Below, piece after piece: positions 21,146 through 33,961 of a stretch of 33,961 nucleotides of DNA. Origin of the DNA: a virus (lineage: Duplodnaviria; Heunggongvirae; Uroviricota; Caudoviricetes); the IMG/VR virus record IMGVR_UViG_2636415959_000001, positions 1 to 33,961 of that record. One strand, 5' to 3'. The position numbers and the translations under genes were made by a program. Within the stretch, counting starts at the first letter, position 1; each line of letters begins with the position of its first letter. The notes below the pieces were generated by a model, which did no database searches, was not told the DNA's origin, and was given only the letters and a program-made list of their open reading frames with translations.

Positions 21146-21316
21146 ATGTTTGTGAAACCTGTTAAAGGGCGGTCAGTTCCTGACCCTGCCCGTGGCGACC
21201 TTTTGCCCGCCGAGGGGCGAAATGTTGATGAGAACAACTACTGGCTGCGCCGTGAAGCAGCGGGTGATATCCGGCGCGTGAATAAAAAGGTGAATACCGA
21301 TGACGATAAGCTTTAA
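21146..21316 (+). CDS. Small conserved protein preceding the tail sheath (56 aa), below ORF-track cutoff
   Basis: Hand translation MFVKPVKGRSVPDPARGDLLPAEGRNVDENNYWLRREAAGDIRRVNKKVNTDDDKL; overlaps the sheath start by 17 nt. Confidence 0.4.
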   Translation: MFVKPVKGRSVPDPARGDLLPAEGRNVDENNYWLRREAAGDIRRVNKKVNTDDDKL

Positions 21317-22796
21317 CACCATTCCGTCGAATACGCTGGTTCCGTTGTTTTATGCGGAAATGGATAACCAGGCGGCGAATACTGCACAGGACAGCGGAGC
21401 ATCGCTGCTGATTGGTCATGCCAATAACGGTGCAGAGATTGTTGCCAACAGTCTGGTGCTGATGCCGTCGGCAGACTATGCACGCCAGATTTGTGGTGCG
21501 GGAAGTCAGCTGGCGCGTATGGTTGAGGCTTATCGCCAGACCGACCCGTTTGGTGAGCTGTATGTGATTGCCGTTCCGGAAGCCACAGGCGCGGCGGCAA
21601 CGGTTACGCTGACGGTGACCGGGGAAGCAACCGAAAGCGGCACGGTGAATGTCTATGTGGGACGTACCCGCGTGCAGGCTCCGGTGACCAACGGCGATAA
21701 CGTCACGACGATTGCCAGCAGTATCCAGGATGCCATCAATGCCGTTCCGACTCTGCCGTTTACAGCTTCATCTTCGGCTGGCGTGGTCACACTGACCGCG
21801 CGTCATAAGGGGCTTTGCGGGAATGAAATTCCTGTCAGCCTCAATTACTACGGCTTTGGTGGGGGCGAAGTGCTGCCTGCGGGCGTACAGATTGCCGTGG
21901 CGACGGGGACCGCCGGAACGGGCTCTCCTGTTCTCACCGGCGCGGTGGCTGCAATGGCGGATGAGCCGTTTGATTATATCGGCCTGCCATTCAACGACAC
22001 GGCCTCCGTTAACACGCTGGTGACCGAGATGAACGATACCAGCGGTCGCTGGAGCTATGCGCGTCAGCTGTATGGTCATGTGTATACGGCAAAGATCGGC
22101 ACGCTGTCAGAACTGGTGACCGCAGGTGATCAGTTTAACCAGCAGCACATTACCCTGGCGGGGTACGAAAAAGAGACCCAGACGCCTGCTGACGAGCTGG
22201 CGGCAAGCCGTACCGCCCGCGCAGCGGTGTTTATTCGCAACGATCCGGCACGTCCCACGCAGACCGGTGAGCTGGTGGGTATGCTGCCTGCGCCGAAGGG
22301 GAAACGGTTCACGATGACCGAACAACAGACCCTGCTGTCTCATGGCGTGGCAACGGCGTATGTCGAAAGTGGGGTACTGCGCACTCAGCGTGATGTCACC
22401 ACGTACAGGAAAAACGCTTACGGGGTTGCGGATAACAGCTACCTCGACAGTGAGACACTGCATACCAGCGCGTATGTACTGCGCAAACTGAAATCCGTCA
22501 TTACCAGTAAGTACGGGCGTCACAAGCTTGCCAGCGACGGTACCCGCTTTGGTCCCGGTCAGGCGATTGTCACCCCGGCGGTAATCAAAGGGGAACTGCT
22601 GGCAACCTACCGTCAGCTTGAGCGTGCGGGGATCGTGGAAAACTACGAACTGTTTAAGCAGTACCTGGTTGTGGAGCGTGATGCCAGCGATCCGAACCGC
22701 CTGAACACGCTGTTCCCGCCTGACTATGTTAACCAGTTGCGTGTTTTTGCCGTGGTTAACCAGTTCCGTCTTCAGTATTCAGAGGAGTCTGCATAA
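21300..22796 (+). CDS. Contractile tail sheath protein (Mu L-like)
   Basis: 498 aa; first gene of a sheath-tube-chaperone-tape-measure series. Confidence 0.8.
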   Translation: MTISFNTIPSNTLVPLFYAEMDNQAANTAQDSGASLLIGHANNGAEIVANSLVLMPSADYARQICGAGSQLARMVEAYRQTDPFGELYVIAVPEATGAAATVTLTVTGEATESGTVNVYVGRTRVQAPVTNGDNVTTIASSIQDAINAVPTLPFTASSSAGVVTLTARHKGLCGNEIPVSLNYYGFGGGEVLPAGVQIAVATGTAGTGSPVLTGAVAAMADEPFDYIGLPFNDTASVNTLVTEMNDTSGRWSYARQLYGHVYTAKIGTLSELVTAGDQFNQQHITLAGYEKETQTPADELAASRTARAAVFIRNDPARPTQTGELVGMLPAPKGKRFTMTEQQTLLSHGVATAYVESGVLRTQRDVTTYRKNAYGVADNSYLDSETLHTSAYVLRKLKSVITSKYGRHKLASDGTRFGPGQAIVTPAVIKGELLATYRQLERAGIVENYELFKQYLVVERDASDPNRLNTLFPPDYVNQLRVFAVVNQFRLQYSEESA

Positions 22797-23152
22797 TGGC
22801 CCGTATCGGGGGAACCTGTTATTTCAAAATTGACGGTCAGCAGCTATCGCTGACCGGCGGCATTGAGGTGCCCATGAACAGGACGGTCAATGATGACATC
22901 ATCGGCCTGGACGGTTCAGTGGACCGCAAGGAAACTCACCGTGCGCCTTATGTCAAAGGGACCTTCAAGGTGCCGAAGAATTTTCCGGTGAGCAAAATCA
23001 CCTCGTCTGATGAGATGACCATCACTGCCGAGCTGGCGAACGGTCAGGTCTATGTATTGTCGTCCGCCTGGCTGCACGGAGAAGCGAACCATAATGCCGA
23101 AGAAGGCACGGTTGATCTTGAGTTCCACGGTGAAGAAGGGGATTACCAGTAA
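22796..23152 (+). CDS. Tail tube protein (Mu M-like)
   Basis: 118 aa directly after the sheath with ATGA-type overlap. Confidence 0.75.
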   Translation: MARIGGTCYFKIDGQQLSLTGGIEVPMNRTVNDDIIGLDGSVDRKETHRAPYVKGTFKVPKNFPVSKITSSDEMTITAELANGQVYVLSSAWLHGEANHNAEEGTVDLEFHGEEGDYQ

Positions 23153-23421
23153 TGAAAGAGCTTGAGTTAAAGAAACCGATTATCGCTCATGGTGAGACAC
23201 TCTCCGTACTGGAGTTTGATGAGCCCACCGGGAAAGATGTCCGCGAGCTGGGATATCCCTACCAGATGAATCAGGATGAGTCCGTCAGACTTCTGGCGCA
23301 TGTGGTATCGAAATACATCGTGCGGCTGGCGAAAGTGCCGCAAAGCTCTGTCGACCAGATGTCTCCGGCAGACCTGAATGCAGCGGCGTGGCTTGTGGCC
23401 GGTTTTTTCCTCCAGGCCTGA
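23152..23421 (+). CDS. Tail assembly chaperone (short form)
   Basis: 89 aa directly upstream of the tape measure; contains slippery T_TTT_TTC at its 3' end. Confidence 0.65.
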   Translation: MKELELKKPIIAHGETLSVLEFDEPTGKDVRELGYPYQMNQDESVRLLAHVVSKYIVRLAKVPQSSVDQMSPADLNAAAWLVAGFFLQA

Positions 23422-23570
23422 CGGCTGAATACCTCACTGATCGCTTCTTTGACTGCGCCAGTTACTGGCGCATTAATCCCTTCGAATTGCTGAATATGCC
23501 GATCAGTGAAATTCCCTTGCTGGTCAGTCAGGCAAACAGGATAGAGCAGGAGAAACGCACACATGGCTGA
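23152..23570 (+). CDS. Tail assembly chaperone, predicted -1 frameshift fusion product
   Basis: Slippery heptamer TTTTTTC (23403-23409) in the 0 frame (GGT TTT TTC); a -1 shift enters the overlapping ORF that ends at 23570. Confidence 0.5.
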
Positions 23571-25530
23571 ATTTGAGCTTAAGGCGTTGATCACCGGTGT
23601 CGACAGGCTTTCTCCCGCGCTGTCGAAAATGCAAAAGAAAATCCGGGGATTTAAACGCCAGGCGGAAGAAGCGTCAAAGGGTGGGCTGGCGCTTGGTGGC
23701 GGACTGGCAGCGGGTCTGACGCTTTCCCTGAAATCTTATGCCGATCAGGAAAACGCCGCCACCGGGCTGAAAGTCGCCATGATGGATGCGAATGGCGAGG
23801 TTGGAAAGAGCTTTCAGGACATCAATAAACTGGCTATTGGCCTGGGTAACCAGCTACCCGGTACAACGGCTGATTTCCAGAACATGATGCAGATGCTGGT
23901 GCGTCAGGGGATCCCGGCAGAAAACATTCTTGGCGGTGTGGGTAAAGCGACAGCTTATCTTGCGGTACAACTGAAAAAAACACCGGAAGCGGCTGCTGAG
24001 TTTGCTGCAAAGATGCAGGATGCTACCGGAACGGCGTCAGAAGACATGATGGGGCTGTTCGACACTATCCAGAAGGCGTTTTATCTGGGCGTTGACGATA
24101 CCAACATGTTGTCCTTCTTCACTAAAACCAGTTCTGTTCTGAAGATGGTGAACAAGGACGGTCTTCAGGCTGCACAGAGCCTTGCCCCCATCAGCGTCAT
24201 GATGGATCAGATGGGGATGAACGGGGAGTCGGCAGGTAATGCCCTGCGAAAAGTTATCCAGTCCGGATTAAGCGTTAAGAAAATCAGGGACGTCAATAAA
24301 ATCATGGCCCGCCAGAAACTCGGGGTACAGCTCGATTTTACTGACGGCAAAGGAAGTTTTGGCGGTCTTGATAACATGTTCAGGCAACTGGCAAAGCTGC
24401 GAAAACTGACCGACGTTAAGCGAACAGGCGTACTTAAGGCAATATTTGGTGATGATGCCGAAACCCTTCAGGTGGTCAATGCACTAATCGATAAAGGAAA
24501 GGATGGTTACGATCAGATCCAGCAGAAGATGAATAAACAGGCCAGCCTGAATAAACGTGTTCAGGCACAGCTTGGTACGCTGTCCAACCTGTGGGAGGCA
24601 ATGACGGGGACCGCAACTAACGGCCTTGCGGCTATTGGCGGCGCATTTTCTGGTGACGCCAAAAATATCACGCAATGGCTGGGGGAGTTGGGGGAAAAAT
24701 TCACGAAGTTTGCGGATGAAAATCCCCGGGTTATTCGCGGCGTCGTCGGGCTTGCTGCCGGTCTTGCGATTCTGAAACTGGGATTGATGGGCGTGGGCAG
24801 TGCCATCAGTATCGTCAGCAGGATCATGTCGATGACGCCGATTGGCATGATTGCGACGGCGATTGCCTTGGCTGCGGGATTAATTATCACTAACTGGGAT
24901 GTTGTTGGACCTTATTTCAAGAAGCTCTGGGAAACCATTGGTCCTTATTTTGAGGCTGGCTGGGAACTTCTGAAGAAGGTTTTTGCCTGGTCGCCGCTGG
25001 GGATGGTAATCAATAACTGGGGACCGGTTGTTAAGTGGTTTCAGGATATGTGGGACAAGCTGAAGCCAATTATTGAGTGGTTTACCGACAGTTCCGGTGA
25101 CACGGTCGATGCCATTAACTCGGCGCAGTGGGGCGCGGGTGCTTATGATGCTTATGGGACGGGAATACCGGCGCGGGGATACACACCTTATCCGGCGGTA
25201 GATCCGGCTCAGTCAAACAACGCCTCCGGTGACACGGTCGATGCCATTAACTCGGCGCAGTGGGGCGCGGGTGCTTATGATGCTTATGGGACGGGAATAC
25301 CGGCGCGGGGATACACACCTTATCCGGCGGTAGATCCGGCTCAGTCAAACAACGCCTCCGATGCTACAGGCCCGAATCCCTTCATGATTAACAAAGCTTC
25401 TGCGCCAAAAGTTGACGGTGAGATCAAGGTCTCTTTTGTGAATTCGCCTCCGGGTATGCGGGTTATGGAAACGCGATCCAGCGGTTTTGATATAAATCAC
25501 GATGTTGGCTATACGCATATTGGCAGATGA
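23563..25530 (+). CDS. Tail tape measure protein
   Basis: 655 aa; helical/Gly-Ala-rich membrane-like segments; contains a perfect in-frame 132-bp tandem duplication. Confidence 0.85.
   Translation: MAEFELKALITGVDRLSPALSKMQKKIRGFKRQAEEASKGGLALGGGLAAGLTLSLKSYADQENAATGLKVAMMDANGEVGKSFQDINKLAIGLGNQLPGTTADFQNMMQMLVRQGIPAENILGGVGKATAYLAVQLKKTPEAAAEFAAKMQDATGTASEDMMGLFDTIQKAFYLGVDDTNMLSFFTKTSSVLKMVNKDGLQAAQSLAPISVMMDQMGMNGESAGNALRKVIQSGLSVKKIRDVNKIMARQKLGVQLDFTDGKGSFGGLDNMFRQLAKLRKLTDVKRTGVLKAIFGDDAETLQVVNALIDKGKDGYDQIQQKMNKQASLNKRVQAQLGTLSNLWEAMTGTATNGLAAIGGAFSGDAKNITQWLGELGEKFTKFADENPRVIRGVVGLAAGLAILKLGLMGVGSAISIVSRIMSMTPIGMIATAIALAAGLIITNWDVVGPYFKKLWETIGPYFEAGWELLKKVFAWSPLGMVINNWGPVVKWFQDMWDKLKPIIEWFTDSSGDTVDAINSAQWGAGAYDAYGTGIPARGYTPYPAVDPAQSNNASGDTVDAINSAQWGAGAYDAYGTGIPARGYTPYPAVDPAQSNNASDATGPNPFMINKASAPKVDGEIKVSFVNSPPGMRVMETRSSGFDINHDVGYTHIGR
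25093..25356. repeat. Perfect tandem duplication (2 x 132 bp) inside the tape measure gene
   Basis: 25093-25224 and 25225-25356 read identical by eye (TCCGGTGACACGGTCGATGCC...CAAACAACGCC), encoding two copies of a 44-aa unit. Confidence 0.9.
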
Positions 25531-25546
25531 CGGAACCAGATATAAT
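25520..25546 (+). promoter_or_regulatory. Putative sigma70 promoter of the moron gene
   Basis: TTGGCA (25520-25525), 15-bp spacer (short), consensus TATAAT (25541-25546); overlaps the tape measure stop. Confidence 0.4.
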
Positions 25547-25582
25547 TTGTCTTTAAGTTTGTTATCAACTGAAGGGAAATCT

Positions 25583-25960
25583 ATGGGTCTGTTACATGCC
25601 ATTATAGGTAATGCCGGTGAAATTAATGCATCAGATGCACAACAGGAATTAGGGGCTGTTTTAGGTGAGGGAGAAAATGTCGAACTTGCCTATAAACTCA
25701 TTCGTGACCAAATTATTCTGACTAACAGAAGGTTAATTTTTATTGATAAGCAGGGTGTCACAGGGAAAAAAGTAGAGTATCGTTCGATTCCTTATAAATC
25801 TGTGACAAACTTTTCTATTGAAACCGCCGGGCATCTTGATCTTGATGCTGAAATGAAGATATGGATTTCTGGTATTGCAGAACCGATAAAAAAACAGTTC
25901 AGTAAAGGAGCAAACATTTATAAATTGCAGGCTCATCTGGCTCAAAAAATAGCAGGGTAA
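25583..25960 (+). CDS. AT-rich moron gene: hypothetical 125-aa protein, possibly a bacterial PH-like fold
   Basis: ATG 25583 with RBS GAAGGGA; codon usage markedly AT-richer than flanking tail genes; own promoter-like element and terminator; ..ILTNRRLIFIDKQGVTGKKVEYRSIPYKSVTNFSIE.. (fold assignment is a tentative recollection). Confidence 0.6.
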   Translation: MGLLHAIIGNAGEINASDAQQELGAVLGEGENVELAYKLIRDQIILTNRRLIFIDKQGVTGKKVEYRSIPYKSVTNFSIETAGHLDLDAEMKIWISGIAEPIKKQFSKGANIYKLQAHLAQKIAG

Positions 25961-26023: not shown

Positions 26024-27352
26024 ATGACGTGGAAAGACAGGCTTCAGGACGCGTCATTTCGCGGTGTGCCGTTTAAGGTTGAAGAAGAAAGTGCGGGAAC
26101 AGGTCGCCGTGTGGAAACACACGAATATCCGAACCGCGACAAACCCTATACCGAAGATCTGGGAAAAGTCACTTTCCGCCCGTCCATCACGGCTTATGTG
26201 GTGGGCGATGACTGCTTTGACCAGCGCGATCGCCTGATTGACGCGCTGAATAAACCCGGTCCCGGCACGCTTGTCCACCCGACTTACGGTGAGCTGAAAG
26301 TCTGTGTTGACGGAGAGGTTCGGGTCAGCACATCGAAAAGTGAAGGGCGTATTGTCCGCTTTGACCTGAAGTTTGTCGAAGCGGGAGAACTCTCTTACCC
26401 CACATCAGGTGCGGCGACGGCGCAGACGCTGATGTCATCCTGTTCTGCACTGGATGACTGCATCAGTGACAGCTTCAGCGGTTTCAGTATCGATGGTGTG
26501 GCGGATTTCGTGCAGAACGACGTTATCGGTAATGCCAGCATAATGCTGGGGTATGTTTCTGATGCGATGAAAGTGGTGGATTCTGCCGTATCGGATGCCG
26601 CCAGGCTGTTGCAGGGGGATATCTCGGTACTTCTGCCGCCGCCATCGTCAGGCAAAAATTTCGTTGAGCAGGTGCAGAAAATGTGGCGTACCGGGAAACG
26701 CCTTTATGGTAACGCCAGCGACCTGGTCACCATGATCAAAACGCTTTCCGGTGTCAGCCTCGGCAGCGATCTGCAACCGCGCGGCGTCTGGAAAACGGAC
26801 AGTAAAACCACCGCCACGGCGACGCAGCAGCGTAACGTGGTTGCCAGTACCCTTCGTACGACCGCAATCAGCGAAGCGGCGTATGCCGTCACCCAATTGC
26901 CTGCGCCAACAACTTCCGCGGTGATGCAGAATTCCTCAGTGGGGCAGGCTACAACACCTGCGCAGAGCACTGGCTGGCCTTCCGTCACGCATCCGGCACT
27001 GAACAATGCACCGGCGGTGAAAAACACGGTTGACCTGCCGACGTGGGAAGAACTGACTGACATTCGCGACACACTGAATACGGCAATTGATAAGGAGTTG
27101 TCCCGTACAACCAGTGATGCGCTGTTTCTGGCGCTGCGCCGGGTGAAAGCAGATCTGAATGCGGATATCAACACGCGCCTTGAACAGTCTGCACGGATCA
27201 TTCAGCGCACACCGGATGAGGTTTTACCCGCGCTGGTGCTGGCGGCGACCTGGTTTGATAACGCGGCGCGTGACGCGGACATTATCCGGCGTAATGCCAT
27301 TACGCATCCCGGCTTTGTGCCGGTGATCCCTCTGAAGGTGCCAGTGCAATGA
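26024..27352 (+). CDS. DNA circularization protein (Mu N-like)
   Basis: 442 aa from ATG 26024 (RBS GGAG); N-terminal MTWKDRLQDASFRGVPFKVEEE.. typical of Mu N-like proteins as recalled; position after tape measure. Confidence 0.7.
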   Translation: MTWKDRLQDASFRGVPFKVEEESAGTGRRVETHEYPNRDKPYTEDLGKVTFRPSITAYVVGDDCFDQRDRLIDALNKPGPGTLVHPTYGELKVCVDGEVRVSTSKSEGRIVRFDLKFVEAGELSYPTSGAATAQTLMSSCSALDDCISDSFSGFSIDGVADFVQNDVIGNASIMLGYVSDAMKVVDSAVSDAARLLQGDISVLLPPPSSGKNFVEQVQKMWRTGKRLYGNASDLVTMIKTLSGVSLGSDLQPRGVWKTDSKTTATATQQRNVVASTLRTTAISEAAYAVTQLPAPTTSAVMQNSSVGQATTPAQSTGWPSVTHPALNNAPAVKNTVDLPTWEELTDIRDTLNTAIDKELSRTTSDALFLALRRVKADLNADINTRLEQSARIIQRTPDEVLPALVLAATWFDNAARDADIIRRNAITHPGFVPVIPLKVPVQ

Positions 27353-28428
27353 ACGACAATGTCACGCTACGGGTAAATGGCCGGGAGTGGAATGGCTGGA
27401 CATCGGTGCGCATCGGTGCCGGTATTGAACGGCTGGCGCGGGATTTCAGTGTGGAGATCACCCGCCAGTGGCCGGGAGATGAGGGTATTACCACGCTTCA
27501 GTCGCGCATTAAAAACGGTTCAAAAGTGGAGGTGCTGATTGGTGATGAGCTGGTGATCACCGGCTGGGTGGAGGCGACGCCCGTTCGTTACGATGCCCGT
27601 TCGGTCAGCACCGGTATTGCCGGACGCAGTCTGACCGCTGACCTGATTGACTGTGCAGCCGAACCGACACAGTTTAACGGACGATCGCTGGTACAGATTG
27701 CGCAGGCGCTTGCTGCGCCTTTCGGCATTGAGGTGGTGAACAGCGGTGCGCCGTCGGGTGTTATTCCTGATGTTCAGCCTGATCACGGTGAAACGGTGAT
27801 TGAGGTAATCAACAAAATACTCGGTCAGCAGCAGGCACTGGCTTACGACGACCCGCACGGCAGGCTGGTGATTGGCGGTATTGGCTCAACGCGGGCACAT
27901 ACTGCGCTGGTACTCGGGGAAAACATCCTTTCCTGCGATACGGAGAAGAGTATCCGGGAGCGATTTTCTGTTTACCAGGTGGCGGGGCAGCGTGCCGGAA
28001 ACGACGATGATTTCGGTGAGGCCACCACCACCGCGCTGCGGGCCCGCACAGAGGACGCATTTATTGCCCGTTACCGTCCGATGTATATCAGGCAGACAGG
28101 GCAGGCTACGGGGGCAGGCTGTATTGCGCGTGCTGACTTTGAAGCCCGGCAACGGGCGGCGCGGACGGATGAAACCACCTATGTGGTGCAGGGCTGGCGA
28201 CAGGGTAACGGTACGCTGTGGCAGCCCAACCAGCGGGTGATTGTCTTTGATCCGGTCTGTGGTTTCGACAATACCGAACTGCTTGTTTCGGAAGTCACGT
28301 TTACTCAGGACCAGAACGGCACCCTGACGGAAATCCGTGTCGGCCCGCCTGATGCTTATCTGCCTGAACCCGAAGCCCCCGGCGCGCGGAAAAAGAAAAA
28401 AGCCAGAGTACAGGAGGACCCGTTCTGA
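27349..28428 (+). CDS. Baseplate hub / tail protein (Mu P/gp44-like)
   Basis: 359 aa; position in the Mu-type baseplate series; 4-nt overlap with the upstream gene. Confidence 0.7.
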   Translation: MNDNVTLRVNGREWNGWTSVRIGAGIERLARDFSVEITRQWPGDEGITTLQSRIKNGSKVEVLIGDELVITGWVEATPVRYDARSVSTGIAGRSLTADLIDCAAEPTQFNGRSLVQIAQALAAPFGIEVVNSGAPSGVIPDVQPDHGETVIEVINKILGQQQALAYDDPHGRLVIGGIGSTRAHTALVLGENILSCDTEKSIRERFSVYQVAGQRAGNDDDFGEATTTALRARTEDAFIARYRPMYIRQTGQATGAGCIARADFEARQRAARTDETTYVVQGWRQGNGTLWQPNQRVIVFDPVCGFDNTELLVSEVTFTQDQNGTLTEIRVGPPDAYLPEPEAPGARKKKKARVQEDPF

Positions 28429-31024: not shown

Positions 31025-31825
31025 ATGCATCGTATAGACACGAAAACCGCGCAGAAGGATAAGTTCGGCGCGGGTAAGAACGGTTTTACCCGTGGTAATC
31101 CCCAGACTGGTACGCCTGCCACCGATCTGGATGATGACTACTTTGACATGTTGCAGGAGGAGCTTTGCAGCGTTGTGGAGGCATCCGGTGCCAGCCTGGA
31201 GAAGGGGCGGCATGACCAGTTGCTTACCGCACTTCGCGCACTGCTGTTAAGCCGCAATAATCCGTTTGGTGATATCAAATCGGACGGCACTGTGCAAACG
31301 GCTCTCGAAAACCTTGGTTTGGGAGAAGGTTCAGCATTACCGGTTGGTGTGCCTGTTCCGTGGCCTTCAGCTACACCACCGACAGGCTGGTTGAAATGCA
31401 ATGGTGCAGCTTTTTCTGCTGAAGAATACCCGGAACTGGCAAAGGCTTACCCGACAAATAAATTGCCTGATTTACGCGGTGAGTTTATTCGTGGCTGGGA
31501 TGATGGACGCGGTGTGGATACGGGGAGGGCAATATTATCATCTCAGGGCGATGCCATACGTAATATCTATGGTGAGTTCAAGACTGTAAACGCCGAAAAT
31601 TATTCAATATGGGAATCAGTAGACTCTTTTAAGGGGGCAGTGGTGCCTTTGAACCCCTCAACGGACAATAGTTATTTCTCCATAATCAATAGTATGTTGA
31701 CACAAAGAACAGATGGCTCTGTTTACCCAACAGTGATTGGCCTTGATGCTTCAAGAATTGTTCCAACTGCAAACGAAAACCGTCCACGAAATATTGCATT
31801 TAACTTTATCGTGAGGGCTGCATAA
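31025..31825 (+). CDS. Tail fibre protein with tail-collar domain
   Basis: 266 aa; ..[49 protein letters not shown].. fits the phage tail-collar motif; C-terminal part AT-rich. Confidence 0.75.
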
Positions 31826-32427
31826 TGGATAACGCTGTATTAAATAGCGAGCTTATTGCCACGAAGGCGGGGAATATTACCGTCTATAGCTATGATGGTG
31901 AAACTCGGGAATATATTTCCACTTCAAATGAATATCTTGCCGTTGGCGTCGGTATCCCGGCATGTTCTTGTTTAGATGCACCAGTTACACATAAAGCTGG
32001 TTATGCAATCTGCCGTTCTGCAGATTTTAACTCATGGGAATATGTGCCAGACCATCGCGGTGAAATCATCTATAGCACCGAAACAGGAGAATCGAAAGAA
32101 ATCACAGCTCTGGGTGATTACCCTGAAAATACAACCACTATCGCCCCGTTAATGCCATATGATAAATGGGATGGTGAGAAATGGGTGACAGATACTGAGG
32201 CACAGCATAGTGCCGCAGTAGACGCGGCAGAAGCACAGCGCCAGTCACTGATTGATGCAGCAATGGCTTCCATTAGTCTGATTCAGCTGAAATTACAGGC
32301 CGGACGTAAACTGACGCAGGCAGAAACAACCAGACTTAACGCCGTGCTGGATTACATTGACGCGGTGACGGCAACAGATACCAGCACCGCGCCGGATGTC
32401 ATCTGGCCTGAACTGCCGGAGGCGTAG
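31825..32427 (+). CDS. Tail fibre assembly protein (Tfa)
   Basis: 200 aa directly after the tail fibre (ATGA overlap); typical Tfa composition. Confidence 0.7.
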   Translation: MDNAVLNSELIATKAGNITVYSYDGETREYISTSNEYLAVGVGIPACSCLDAPVTHKAGYAICRSADFNSWEYVPDHRGEIIYSTETGESKEITALGDYPENTTTIAPLMPYDKWDGEKWVTDTEAQHSAAVDAAEAQRQSLIDAAMASISLIQLKLQAGRKLTQAETTRLNAVLDYIDAVTATDTSTAPDVIWPELPEA

Positions 32428-32818
32428 GCCATTCAATATCGAGTGCTGTTGAAGTATTAATACGCATCAATAGCACTCGATATTCTTTCCATGCCAGTAA
32501 CAGTTTCGTTTCATCATCTGTTGCCATACCTAAATCAACCGCATCCTGAAGCGGAGCTATTACATTCGTTGCCTCTGCTATCAGTGCAGATTTCTTTTCA
32601 TCATTTATTAAGGCTAATTGTTCTGGTGTTGGAGAAGGACGGTCAACAATGACAGGATGACCGTTCTCACCACAGGTAATCATTTTTGTTACACTCTGTG
32701 CATTAATCAGTGTTTTCCACTCTGATTCCGAGATTTCCACTGCATCATCAGGAATATTGGTGCCGTGAAATTCAGTCGAATAAAATCCGTTTGTCGATGC
32801 AGAATAAAAATATGACAT
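32399..32818 (-). CDS. Tail fibre assembly protein, second copy in inverted orientation
   Basis: 139 aa from ATG 32818 (MSYFYSASTNGFYSTEF.., a typical Tfa N-terminus); convergent with the plus-strand Tfa. Confidence 0.65.
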   Translation of the reverse strand: MSYFYSASTNGFYSTEFHGTNIPDDAVEISESEWKTLINAQSVTKMITCGENGHPVIVDRPSPTPEQLALINDEKKSALIAEATNVIAPLQDAVDLGMATDDETKLLLAWKEYRVLLMRINTSTALDIEWPTPPAVQAR

Positions 32819-32822
32819 TTCG

Positions 32823-33221
32823 TTAATATCCCATTGCAATGTAATACGCATCAGCAGATGAACCATATCCTGAACCGGGCGACACTGTAATATTAAATCC
32901 AGTGTTCTGGACATTTGTCGCCGATACAGTCGGCTGCCCTGACGCGCCAGTAACGTTCAATGTAACTGTGACAGCAAGGACTCTTGAGAATGTCATCGGG
33001 AACCTTATCTCGTATGTTGAAGAAACATTCGGGGAGCCATTCAACTGACCGCACTGTAAAATTAAACCAGACGGAAATTTTTGCGCAGCAGCCGTTGCGG
33101 TATTACTTGACGCGAACAGGCTCATATCAGGTATCTGATTCGCCCCTGTACCTACATTCCTTTTAGCTGCTTCTCCCAAACCAACGTTTACGAAAATAAA
33201 AATCCGCCACAGCGTAATCAA
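32823..33221 (-). other. Inverted tail-fibre C-terminal (receptor-binding-like) coding segment lacking its own N-terminal part
   Basis: Minus-strand ORF ending 4 nt before the inverted Tfa; track start is a non-ATG codon inside the dinI terminator; first in-frame ATG at 33125 has no clear RBS. Confidence 0.45.
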
Positions 33222-33250: not shown

Positions 33251-33493
33251 TTACTCACTCACTAACCAAAATTCAGCCTCTTCAAACATTTCCTGGACTA
33301 CTGCACTGATCCGTTCCTTCTCGTGCTTGCTGGCGTCAGTGTTGATCGCCGGTAGTGTCATCATCGGTTTAACCCGAACATCAGCGTCAGGGAAAATCCG
33401 GTGAACCCTCTTGGTCAATTCGCCCAGAATGATATCTTTTGCACCGGGAAGACCATCAAAATTCCTTTTGTCATAAACGAGTTCCACGAACAT
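33251..33493 (-). CDS. dinI: DinI-family protein
   Basis: 80 aa; ..FPDADVRV.. and acidic C-terminus ..EEAEFWLVSE parallel E. coli DinI (..DDWFVSE) as recalled; LexA box in its promoter. Confidence 0.8.
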   Translation of the reverse strand: MFVELVYDKRNFDGLPGAKDIILGELTKRVHRIFPDADVRVKPMMTLPAINTDASKHEKERISAVVQEMFEEAEFWLVSE

Positions 33494-33508
33494 TGCTCAT
33501 TGCCTCTT

Positions 33509-33528
33509 TGCTGGATGGATATACAGTA
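33509..33528. promoter_or_regulatory. LexA (SOS) box in the divergent dinI-like / umuD'-like promoter region
   Basis: Minus-strand reading TACTGTATATCCATCCAGCA (CTGT-N8-CCAG), very close to the E. coli dinI box as I recall it; lies between -35 TTGCTG and -10 TATACT (plus strand) and directly downstream of -10 TATAAA (minus strand). Confidence 0.6.
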
Positions 33529-33571
33529 TTTATACTGTGTTTTTATCCGGTATTCAAGAGAGGGCGTAAAC

Positions 33572-33961
33572 ATGGGCTTTCCTTCACCTGCTGCAGATTA
33601 TGTTGAAACACGAATCTCCCTCGATCAGCAGTTAATCAGCCAGCCCGCAGCGACTTATTTCATGCGTGCATCGCGTTCACATTTCAGGGAAGGGATAATT
33701 CAGGGGGCGCTGCTTGTTGTTGATGCCTCACTTTCAGCCTGTGATGGCTCGCTGCTGATCTGCGCGATAGACGGAGAATTTAGGATCAAGCGATATCGGA
33801 CACATCCTCAACCCCACCTCGTTAATCTGGAGAACGGGAGAAAGGAGGCGCTGCCAGTAGATGATGGCGGTTACAGTTCTGCACCCGCTGTATTTGGGGT
33901 GCTTACTTACATCATCAATGACGCCAGGAATGCAGAGTTTGATGATTGCCCGGTGATGTGA
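33572..33961 (+). CDS. UmuD'-like protein (S24-family fold, N-terminally pre-truncated, catalytic Ser not conserved)
   Basis: 129 aa from ATG 33572 (RBS GAGAGGG); starts MGFPSPAADYVE.., aligning to E. coli UmuD from Gly25 (..CGFPSPAADYVEQ..); GDSM position reads RSHF; Lys of ..EFRIKR.. retained; stop is the last codon of the window. Confidence 0.75.
   Translation: MGFPSPAADYVETRISLDQQLISQPAATYFMRASRSHFREGIIQGALLVVDASLSACDGSLLICAIDGEFRIKRYRTHPQPHLVNLENGRKEALPVDDGGYSSAPAVFGVLTYIINDARNAEFDDCPVM

Follow-up and report, generated by a model that had tools for sequence, protein, structure and literature searches.

A tandem 44-codon repeat in the tape measure gene of an SfV-like prophage of Escherichia coli G3/10

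Phages of the SfV group belong to the myoviruses, and their contractile tail measures about 110 nm. O-antigen modification (gtr) genes, responsible for serotype conversion, are located next to the integrase gene in SfV/SfI/SfII-like phages. The tape measure gene of SfV (orf14), SfI, SfII, SKA5, and vB_EcoM-689R6 is 1836 nt long, encodes 611 aa, and contains one 132-bp unit followed by the residues SGAT. That the length of the tape measure protein (TMP) sets the length of the tail is an established ruler principle. TMP length was engineered by in-frame deletion and duplication in lambda gpH (Katsura & Hendrix 1984), T4 gp29 (Abuladze et al. 1994), and TP901-1 (Pedersen 2000; Mahony 2016). Slippage that adds or removes repeats is recognized as one way in which TMP length varies (Belcaid et al. 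2011; Moreno-Rodriguez et al. 2026).

The DNA analysed here, designated the window, is a stretch of 33,961 nt from E. coli G3/10 (Symbioflor 2, a licensed probiotic; AC No. JPKI01000002.1) with an SfV/SfI/SfII-like prophage. Its tape measure gene is 97-98% nt identical over the whole gene to those of the five phages and stands in the same order of tail genes. It differs in carrying two adjacent units and coding for 655 aa, and in the residues SDAT after the repeat; a PH-domain gene is present downstream, which SfV is without. The duplication is an ordinary length polymorphism, an event of a known kind, and represents one allele of a repeat that occurs in one, two, or three copies.

Tail genes of the prophage and the repeated unit

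The gene set of the prophage includes an integrase, CI-type repressor, primase-helicase, terminase, capsid, baseplate, and fibre, and judged from it the prophage is apparently complete. HK97-type capsid and Mu-type baseplate domains were recognized in the morphogenesis genes, and both sequence identity and synteny agree with the SfV/SfI/SfII-like phages. Any gtr locus of the G3/10 prophage would lie outside the window, which begins at the integrase. The genes relevant to the tail are as follows.

1-1314, integrase gene, at which the window starts
21300-22796, plus strand, tail sheath gene (Pfam PF04984, PF17482, PF17481)
22796-23152, plus strand, tail tube gene (Pfam PF10618)
23152-23421, plus strand, tail assembly chaperone gene (Pfam PF10109) with the slippery site T_TTT_TTC, found in the sequence and translations
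23388-23570, plus strand, ORF extending the chaperone in the -1 frame and ending at the TMP start
23563-25530, plus strand, tail tape measure protein gene, 655 aa (PF10145)
26024-28428, plus strand, DNA-circularisation (Mu N-like) and baseplate hub (Mu P/gp44-like) genes (PF07157, PF21683, PF22255, PF21929; gene calls)

In the order sheath, tube, PF10109 chaperone with its -1 ORF, TMP, DNA_circ_N, and Mu gp44-like hub, the 655-aa product occupies the position expected of a TMP. Its residues 88-296 matched PF10145 (PhageMin_Tail, TP901-family core) with an E value of 7.8e-27 and 94.9 bits, the cut-off being 33.2. By analogy, the length of the sheath and tube polymer is expected to be set by this protein, and the Mu N-like and hub proteins are likely docking partners of its C-terminus. 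An ORF at 25345-25602 on the minus strand was rejected as coding, since it is a mechanical ORF within a well-supported gene.

Tandem Repeats Finder reported a repeat at 25093-25360 with period 132, 2.0 copies, 100% matches, 0% indels, and a score of 536. Repeat search and direct string comparison gave two 132-nt copies with 100% identity. The repeat is exactly 25093-25356, because a third register begins with the extra positions 25357-25360 (TCCG). Its offset in the ORF (25093-23563 = 1530) equals 510 codons, so the repeat is in frame, and each 132-bp unit encodes the 44-aa segment SGDTVDAINSAQWGAGAYDAYGTGIPARGYTPYPAVDPAQSNNA (residues 511-554 in copy 1 and 555-598 in copy 2). A chance origin of a perfect 132-nt match in 34 kb is of the order of 4^-132, i.e., impossible. 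The earlier note had named the gene a tape measure gene and had described in it a perfect in-frame 132-bp duplication adding 44 aa; the PF10145 match and tail gene order bear out the former, and Tandem Repeats Finder, the repeat search, string identity, and codon count agree on the latter. The elements of the repeat are listed below.

25093-25224, plus strand, repeat copy 1, 132 bp, codons 511-554, represented in relatives by a 120-bp 'P' or 'A' variant
25093-25099, plus strand, TCCGGTG, left bracketing direct repeat, read from the sequence
25198-25209, plus strand, GTAGATCCGGCT in copy 1, 12 nt (VDPA) missing from the 120-bp unit of relatives in the unit-by-unit comparison
25225-25356, plus strand, repeat copy 2, 132 bp, codons 555-598, same sequence as the single unit of strain RM9088
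25225-25231, plus strand, TCCGGTG at the junction of copies 1 and 2, where AACAACGCC meets TCCGGTGAC in a novel joint diagnostic of at least two copies
25357-25363, plus strand, TCCGATG, right bracketing repeat, with one G>A change (SDAT) in the lineage of the window; the SfV type has TCCGGTG (SGAT)

Copy-number alleles among related prophages

The single-copy relatives presumed in the earlier note do exist and form the majority when TMP lengths are compared. One unit and 611 aa were found in SfV, SfI, SfII, SKA5, UTI89, and about 900 complete E. coli genomes. Beside this allele, which is in great majority, two-copy alleles were seen as 132+132, 120A+132, and 120P+132 and a three-copy allele as 120P+120P+132. 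Scanning of 5426 complete E. coli genomes, about 912 of which carry the TMP, revealed the junction of AACAACGCC with TCCGGTGAC in five. It is also present on four IMG/VR contigs (L009-L012, including the three-copy L010 and the 120A+132 intermediate L012), on one metagenome contig (L017), and in the sequence L018. The widespread TMP of 651 aa (120+132 bp) accounts for the five complete genomes and was counted on 189 or more contigs, with examples in 730V1 and HH107 (WP_001514800.1) and in strain G5, and a three-copy TMP of 691 aa is known from KTE41 (WP_016236824.1). All eight TMPs of sequenced phage isolates are single-copy, none having two or three copies. There was no match to the junction in the GTDB species representatives, as expected with one genome per species.

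The 651- and 691-aa alleles share the junction, the downstream haplotype, and the PH-domain gene with the window. They differ from it in their first unit or units, which are 120 bp long owing to the VDPA deletion and usually of the 'P' haplotype, whereas the window has two undeleted, identical units. The 12 nt coding for VDPA sit between two ATCCGGC direct repeats, and their deletion is confined to multi-copy alleles. The three-SNP 'P' haplotype (A>P) is common and occurs in about 113 genomes that have a single copy. The window allele is set apart from the other multi-copy alleles only by its perfect copy 1, and the exact allele (132+132, 'A+A') was not found elsewhere in the 5426 complete genomes and the protein collection.

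L018 carries another 132+132 allele, with two copies sharing three SNPs that the window does not have. It has SGAT downstream, no PH-domain gene, and 33 flank differences from the window, and by these sequence marks it is an independent duplication on a different haplotype. At least two independent duplications are evident from the sequences. The closest prophages in complete E. coli genomes showed about 97% identity over about 80% of the 25-kb query; neither a near-identical prophage nor a second G3/10 assembly was found among these genomes.

Origin and age of the duplicated allele

TCCGGTG occurs at the unit start and directly after the unit in SfV, UTI89, and L018. In the window, unit end is followed by unit start with no filler between the copies. 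Microhomology-mediated tandem duplication at the TCCGGTG repeats, by slipped-strand mispairing in replication or by unequal exchange, would yield exactly this junction. In the SDAT background of the window, the bracketing homology is only TCCG + TG (6/7). Among the multi-copy alleles, copy 1 would later have lost 12 nt through slippage and received the 'P' haplotype by import. Recurrence at the same site (L018) and further expansion (L010, KTE41) were observed; the reciprocal zero-copy deletion junction, which is expected from slippage, is absent in the 5426 genomes. A natural in-frame head-to-tail duplication of 44 codons, belonging to a recurrent copy-number polymorphism of E. coli prophages and inherited by the window within a multi-copy clade, is considered the probable explanation.

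The window has no difference from 1332KP (L003) and L010 in the 1530 nt of TMP upstream of the repeat and the 592 nt downstream. The upstream 1530 nt are identical to two- and three-copy alleles and to no single-copy allele; single-copy alleles have 19-50 differences, and RM9088 (L014) has 26 over the 2227-nt flank. Because the same junction and identical upstream TMP sequence occur elsewhere, the two-copy state appears common to a clade, and it is very unlikely from these sequences that the two copies are an invention of the assembler. With clade divergence of 0.5% or less, about 0.6 differences are expected per pair of 132-nt copies, so their complete identity does not date the duplication; perfect repeat identity is a poor clock where divergence within the clade stays below 0.5%. 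The earlier note saw in the identical copies either a recent event or an artefact. Judged by junction and flanks, the two-copy state is common to a clade and the duplication is neither private to G3/10 nor demonstrably recent, and what stays of that alternative is a possible artefact in copy 1, in its fine sequence. That copy 1 is perfect may come from gene conversion, from the ancestral state, or from a consensus error in the 454 assembly. Most likely, copy 1 was converted by copy 2 or the original state was kept; flank sites show mosaic recombination and are compatible with either direction of change between 132+132 and 120+132.

A consensus error would mean that the two copies are real and the true allele is 120P+132, with copy 1 replaced by the consensus of the repeat when the 454/Newbler assembly was made and finished by hand. 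The G3/10 genome was indeed built from Roche 454 FLX reads, which gave about 190 contigs, and PCR and fosmid walking were used to finish it. The TMP beyond copy 1 is 100% identical to the 120P+132 (1332KP) and three-copy alleles, and the uniqueness of 'A+A' to the G3/10 assembly points in the same direction. However, 454 reads of a few hundred bases and Sanger reads exceed one unit and should resolve a 12-nt indel and three SNPs, natural 132+132 (L018) and intermediate 120A+132 (L012) alleles do occur, and the intact ORFs of the window suggest a polished sequence. An artefact of this sort is rather unlikely, and the deposited 454 assembly merits checking at the repeat. An improbable origin is a private and very recent de novo duplication in G3/10 from a single-copy ancestor. 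The identity of the copies would agree with it, as would the independent duplication of the site at least once (L018) and the single-copy allele of RM9088, which has the exact unit, downstream haplotype, and PH-domain gene of the window; but the flanking TMP sequence is at zero distance from multi-copy alleles and at the distances given above from RM9088 and other single-copy alleles, and common descent in the multi-copy clade is a simpler account of the shared junction and haplotype. It is hardly credible that the whole duplication is an assembly error, e.g., of unmerged overlapping contig ends, in a single-copy strain. Concatenated overlapping ends can give perfect tandem duplications, and many joins were made manually here, yet the in-frame boundaries match the junction in many independent assemblies, including complete genomes of the long-read era; the nearest haplotypes are multi-copy, and an arbitrary overlap would not recreate the joint.

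Position of the unit, tail length, and comparison with other tape measure proteins

The insertion lies at residue 554/555 of 655, between the terminal anchor regions, and the last 57 residues are unchanged in comparison with the 651-aa alleles. The unit is rich in Gly, Pro, and Tyr and poorly hydrophobic (G+P 23% and ILVMF 9%, vs. 13% and 32% in residues 1-510), and it is located between Trp-rich helices and the C-terminal anchor. Hydrophobic stretches are found at about residues 390-445 of the translation. An AF2 model of the whole TMP, computed with an alignment of 14 sequences, has a mean pLDDT of only 32.7, too low to show the unit to be disordered, and was used, as weak evidence, for the coarse helix/coil boundary alone; in it, residues 1-522 are helical and the unit is coil past its first 12 or so residues. 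Composition, the low-confidence coil, and the position after the last Trp-rich helices place the unit outside the helical ruler body. An enzymatic or binding motif embedded in the unit was considered and rejected, as Pfam gives PF10145 only, elsewhere in the protein. By analogy with other TMPs, the last 57 or so residues would be fixed in the hub or spike of the baseplate. In diffocin, the TMP forms a trimeric coiled coil whose C-termini are placed on the spike (PMC11329794), and tube polymerization of XM1 halts at the TMP end (PMC10457771).

A tape measure longer by 7% would, by the ruler rule, give a longer tail, as predicted in the earlier note. The added length would be from about 6.6 nm, at 1.5 Å per residue, to 8 nm when scaled to SfI, which has a tail of about 110 nm (PMC3636060) and a TMP of 611 aa here, and this corresponds to one or two tube/sheath rings. 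A tail longer by about 6.6 nm, or one to two rings, is plausible by analogy. Because the segment is non-helical and adjoins the anchor, the gain could be anything from none to about three rings.

The duplication could also be real and without phenotype, as slack of the linker in the lumen of the hub or tube, or in a prophage from which no virions are made, the tail being unchanged and the polymorphism neutral. This is a serious possibility, somewhat short of probable. The Gly/Pro-rich, non-hydrophobic unit predicted as coil agrees with slack, and linker length varies among natural alleles by -15, -4, +40, +44, and +80 aa. In TP901-1, the tail lengthens linearly with the TMP, about 127 terminal residues contribute nothing to its length, and deletions near the C-terminus are tolerated (PMC5099701). 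The rarity of multi-copy alleles, about 0.5% of carriers, fits neutral or slightly deleterious variants. On the other hand, a narrow lumen must make room for three 44-aa chains, and tail length changes in proportion when insertions are engineered at other places in TMPs. The 651-aa allele is found across differing serotypes, continents, and flank haplotypes, and this wide spread suggests transmissible, functional phages, although it says nothing of tail length. It is quite unlikely that the series of one, two, and three copies represents a natural length polymorphism of contractile tails, kept up among E. coli prophages because the 7-bp repeat slips again and again. If it did, tails would differ in length by whole rings according to copy number, perhaps in line with differences in the thickness of the host envelope or O-antigen, and the series would be a test provided by nature of whether the ruler includes residues beyond the coiled-coil body.

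Variation of TMP length by gain and loss of repeats is textbook knowledge, and its understanding is unchanged by the present allele. Documented here is a recurrent site of one to three copies, for which the junction and the bracketing repeat are defined, in a prophage family that is very common in E. coli and Shigella. The site could be used to ask whether a non-helical linker by the C-terminal anchor counts in the length of a contractile tail.

Sequence search of solved structures gave one weak match, the diffocin TMP CD1366 (PDB 8v3w; E value 4e-4, query residues 294-501), which does not reach the duplicated unit; this search yielded no structure corresponding to the unit. The TMP repeats described by Belcaid et al. 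(2011) and Moreno-Rodriguez et al. (2026) are mainly short periodic motifs of siphoviruses, in contrast to the 44-aa repeat of a contractile tail in the window. Myovirus TMPs are typically without tandem repeats in the survey of Moreno-Rodriguez et al. (2026), so the repeat in the window is less typical. The window shares the in-frame change of length with the engineered TMPs of lambda, T4, and TP901-1. In those phages, it was mostly the helical or repeat ruler body that was altered, and tails were measured by EM, whereas the change in the window is natural and located in a non-helical linker near the anchor.

Tape measure gene and its surroundings

The ORF at 23563-25530 (+) encodes 655 aa and matches Pfam PF10145 (phage minor tail/tape measure core, E 7.8e-27); together with the tail genes around it, this bears out its earlier naming as the gene for a tape measure protein (TMP). 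It is 97-98% identical to genes of the Shigella/E. coli myoviruses SfII, SfV, SfI, SKA5, and vB_EcoM-689R6. The window sits in contig JPKI01000002.1 of GCA_000768425.1, as recognized by an exact protein match. This is E. coli G3/10 (DSM 16443), a constituent of the probiotic Symbioflor 2 (PMC4358396). Public databases already contain the 655-aa protein, annotated merely as tape measure protein. Features of the region are as follows.

21300-22796, tail sheath gene, 5' of TMP
22796-23152, tail tube gene, 5' of TMP
23152-23421, tail assembly chaperone gene (PF10109), 5' of TMP
near 23403-23409, T_TTT_TTC slippery heptamer in the chaperone gene
23388-23570 (+), -1 frame ORF overlapping the chaperone gene and ending at the TMP start
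25093-25224 and 25225-25356, copies 1 and 2 of the 132-bp unit
25583-25960 (+), PH-domain gene (mechanical ORF 25502-25960; PF08000, E 6e-48)
26024-27352, DNA-circularisation gene
31825-32427 (+) and 32399-32914 (-), Caudo_TAP tail-fibre assembly genes
33401-33961, last ORF, Peptidase_S24 domain

The slippery site and the -1 ORF form a canonical arrangement that agrees with the programmed frameshift conserved among tail chaperones. The TMP gene is followed by genes for a bacterial PH-domain protein, for Mu N-like DNA circularisation, and for a Mu gp44-like baseplate hub. Integrase, CI-type repressor, primase-helicase, terminase, HK97-type capsid, baseplate J, and tail fibre genes are encoded elsewhere, and with this set the prophage looks complete.

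The PH-domain gene, between the TMP and DNA-circularisation genes, is found only in a minority lineage (the window and relatives' loci L001-L005 and L014-L016) and is absent from SfV, UTI89, C9, and L018 (a locus in a different draft genome). In L019, a locus from another strain, its slot is taken by an unlike ORF of 170 aa that gave no Pfam match; the position resembles a site of moron insertion within the tail operon. The stretch 31025-32914 holds a tail fibre gene (Collar domain) and, after it, the two Caudo_TAP genes in opposite orientations. Such a layout is reminiscent of an alternative fibre cassette, either invertible or a remnant; the window showed no invertase.

Tandem repeat and copy number in relatives

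Tandem Repeats Finder reported 25093-25360 with period 132, 2.0 copies, 100% matches, and no indels. A repeat search gave the same two 132-nt copies, which are identical in string comparison; 25357-25360 (TCCG) are four extra bases starting a third register. Such a repeat cannot be a chance product, and the perfect tandem duplication is exactly as the earlier note had claimed. It is also in frame: it starts on a codon boundary, 1530 nt (510 whole codons) past the start codon, and each unit thus gives exactly 44 residues, SGDTVDAINSAQWGAGAYDAYGTGIPARGYTPYPAVDPAQSNNA.

All eight phage isolates align over 1832 nt against 1964 query nt, one unit short, and SfV orf14 and the UTI89 gene have 1836 nt, 611 aa, and a single unit. 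Forms of 611/610 aa dominate the protein collection, in clusters with thousands of members, in agreement with the claim of one-copy relatives. A 393-nt probe just 5' of the repeat detected the gene in 912 of 5426 complete E. coli genomes. The copy 1/copy 2 junction (60-mer probe) was present in five, 730V1, G5, 1332KP, 873.10, and HH107, all with a 1956-nt, 651-aa gene; multi-copy alleles thus make up about 0.5% of carriers. The 22-nt junction AACAACGCC/TCCGGTGACACGG was also found in four IMG/VR contigs and one metagenome contig. Junction-bearing and single-copy alleles were split into units, giving the allelic series below.

Allelic series of the TMP repeat (132, undeleted unit; 120P and 120A, 120-bp unit with and without the P haplotype)
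132, one copy: SfV, UTI89, C9, RM9088 (L014), LR-62-2, 30EVA2
132+132: window
132+132, other haplotype: L018 (protein P0023)
120A+132: L012 (IMG/VR contig)
120P+132: L001-L005 (among them 730V1, G5, and 1332KP), L009 (IMG/VR contig), L017 (metagenome contig); L011 (IMG/VR contig) partial
120P+120P+132, three copies: L010 (IMG/VR contig)

The 120-bp unit is without GTAGATCCGGCT (VDPA), and the missing stretch is flanked by two ATCCGGC direct repeats. This 12-nt deletion was seen only in multi-copy alleles. The P haplotype, three clustered substitutions (A>P in protein), is a common polymorphism, carried by about 113 single-copy genomes. In the window's 90% protein cluster the 655-aa member comes from the G3/10 assembly only; the cluster also holds 651-aa proteins on at least 189 contigs (96+36+25+19+...) and one 691-aa protein from E. 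coli KTE41, and additional 651-aa sequences occur among protein-collection relatives. The comparison of TMP length across related prophages gave mostly 611 aa, and the 651-aa and 691-aa alleles are multi-copy.

A perfect 42-bp (14-aa) in-frame VNTR lies in the DNA-circularisation gene of 730V1 (L001 4206-4345), with three full copies there (3.3 by TRF) and two in 1332KP, 873.10, and HH107; none was found in this gene of the window or G5. Annotated lengths of the gene in close relatives range from 1329 to 1413 nt, making it a second tail gene of the family with repeat copy-number variation. Elsewhere in the family, L019 (CP056594.1, 2824-3082; proteins P0001 and P0002) has a 123-bp tandem duplication (2.1 copies, 99% identical) in the Trp-rich region of TMP. 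TMP relatives P0042, P0045, P0046, P0047, P0048, and P0098 represent in-frame deletion alleles, and some TMPs end in an alternative C-terminal module whose linker is shorter by 15 aa.

Age and origin of the duplication

In the 2227 nt 5' of the repeat, 7-19 sites separate the window from multi-copy alleles and 19-50 separate it from single-copy ones; the 592 nt 3' of the repeat are without difference across all alleles of the PH-gene lineage. All seven differences from 1332KP (120P+132) and the three-copy L010 are in the tube and chaperone genes, with none over the 1530 nt of TMP 5' of the repeat. Copy 1, with three SNPs and a 12-nt indel, is the sole TMP difference from a common two-copy allele. 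Because the window TMP matches multi-copy alleles outside copy 1, the junction is, on sequence comparison, common to a clade and not private to G3/10. A truly single-copy G3/10, the outcome that the earlier note had set against its claim, is very unlikely. TMP divergence in the clade is about 0.46% (7/1530 sites, window versus 730V1), so by calculation a duplication as old as the clade would leave only about 0.6 expected differences between its two 132-nt copies, and perfect identity says little on its age. The earlier argument that perfect identity means a recent event or an artefact needs revision; an artefact could still account for the identity of copy 1.

An arbitrary contig-overlap artefact is very unlikely, as it would not yield a natural, in-frame junction. 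A repeat-consensus error is an unlikely but real candidate for the perfect identity; the G3/10 genome was sequenced by Roche 454 FLX, with about 190 contigs that were finished through PCR and fosmid walking (PMC4358396). The slightly favoured candidate is gene conversion of copy 1 by copy 2, since the window flanks are nested within the abundant and diverse 120P+132 alleles. Alternatively, the window may have kept the original state, 132+132, with 120A and later 120P derived from it. G5 (L002, CP060065.1) and G3/10 share a donor and a probiotic product, and both have multi-copy alleles, 120P+132 and 132+132, respectively; their prophage flanks differ at 19/2227 sites, so the two prophages are related but distinct.

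The second 655-aa TMP, P0023 (L018, GCA_020170735.1), is 132+132 with the same junction as the window. Both its copies carry three SNPs not found in the window and differ mutually by one C>T; its 3' part is SfV-like (SGAT just after the unit, a different C-terminus, and no PH-domain gene), and its 2.2-kb upstream flank differs from the window at 33 sites. The likeliest reading is that an L018-type single-copy unit was duplicated independently. In SfV, UTI89, and L018, TCCGGTG opens the unit and recurs directly after it, the pattern to be expected if 7-bp direct repeats at 132-bp spacing underwent slipped-strand mispairing or unequal exchange, by which the duplication probably arose. The right-hand repeat is TCCGATG in the window's lineage, a change also present in single-copy alleles RM9088, LR-62-2, 30EVA2, and C9. 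The reciprocal zero-copy deletion was not found among the 5426 complete E. coli genomes; with just five duplications in the same genomes, this is only a weak hint that at least one unit may be needed.

Tail length and comparison with known systems

In the established ruler model, the tube polymerises round the lumenal TMP until the TMP end, and engineered in-frame deletions or insertions change tail length proportionally (PMC13585406, PMC5099701, and, for XM1, PMC10457771); the length changes of lambda gpH and T4 gp29 are cited in PMC13585406. About 127 terminal residues of the TP901-1 TMP add nothing to length, and its final 60 are essential (PMC5099701). The diffocin TMP, the only structural relative found by sequence search, forms a trimeric coiled coil whose N-termini lie at the collar and whose C-termini sit on the spike (PMC11329794). 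The duplicated unit (residues 511-598) follows hydrophobic segments and Trp-rich helices and precedes the conserved last 57 or so residues. Its Gly/Pro content is 23% versus 13% in residues 1-510, its aliphatic content 9% versus 32%, and the last helix ends near residue 522 in a low-confidence AF2 model.

SfI, with a TMP of 611 aa, has a tail of about 110 nm (PMC3636060). If helical (1.5 A per residue), the 44 extra residues would add 6.6 nm; scaling in proportion to SfI gives about 8 nm, a compact form as little as 1-2 nm, and a fully extended one up to about 15 nm. The ring rise of contractile tails is about 4 nm; the gain would lie between zero and three rings, with one or two most likely, and a longer tail is plausible. 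Multi-copy alleles are rare yet spread over several serotypes, countries, and flank haplotypes, a pattern that suits a roughly neutral variant which transmissible phages tolerate.

That tape measure genes gain and lose repeats in frame, and that this is linked to tail length, is well known. A modest addition is a defined site, recurrent at one to three copies and bracketed by a 7-bp repeat, in a very common prophage family; within this contractile-tail TMP it apparently falls in a non-helical linker. According to a recent survey, myovirus TMPs are typically without tandem repeats (Moreno-Rodriguez et al. 2026), whereas the TMP of the window has one.
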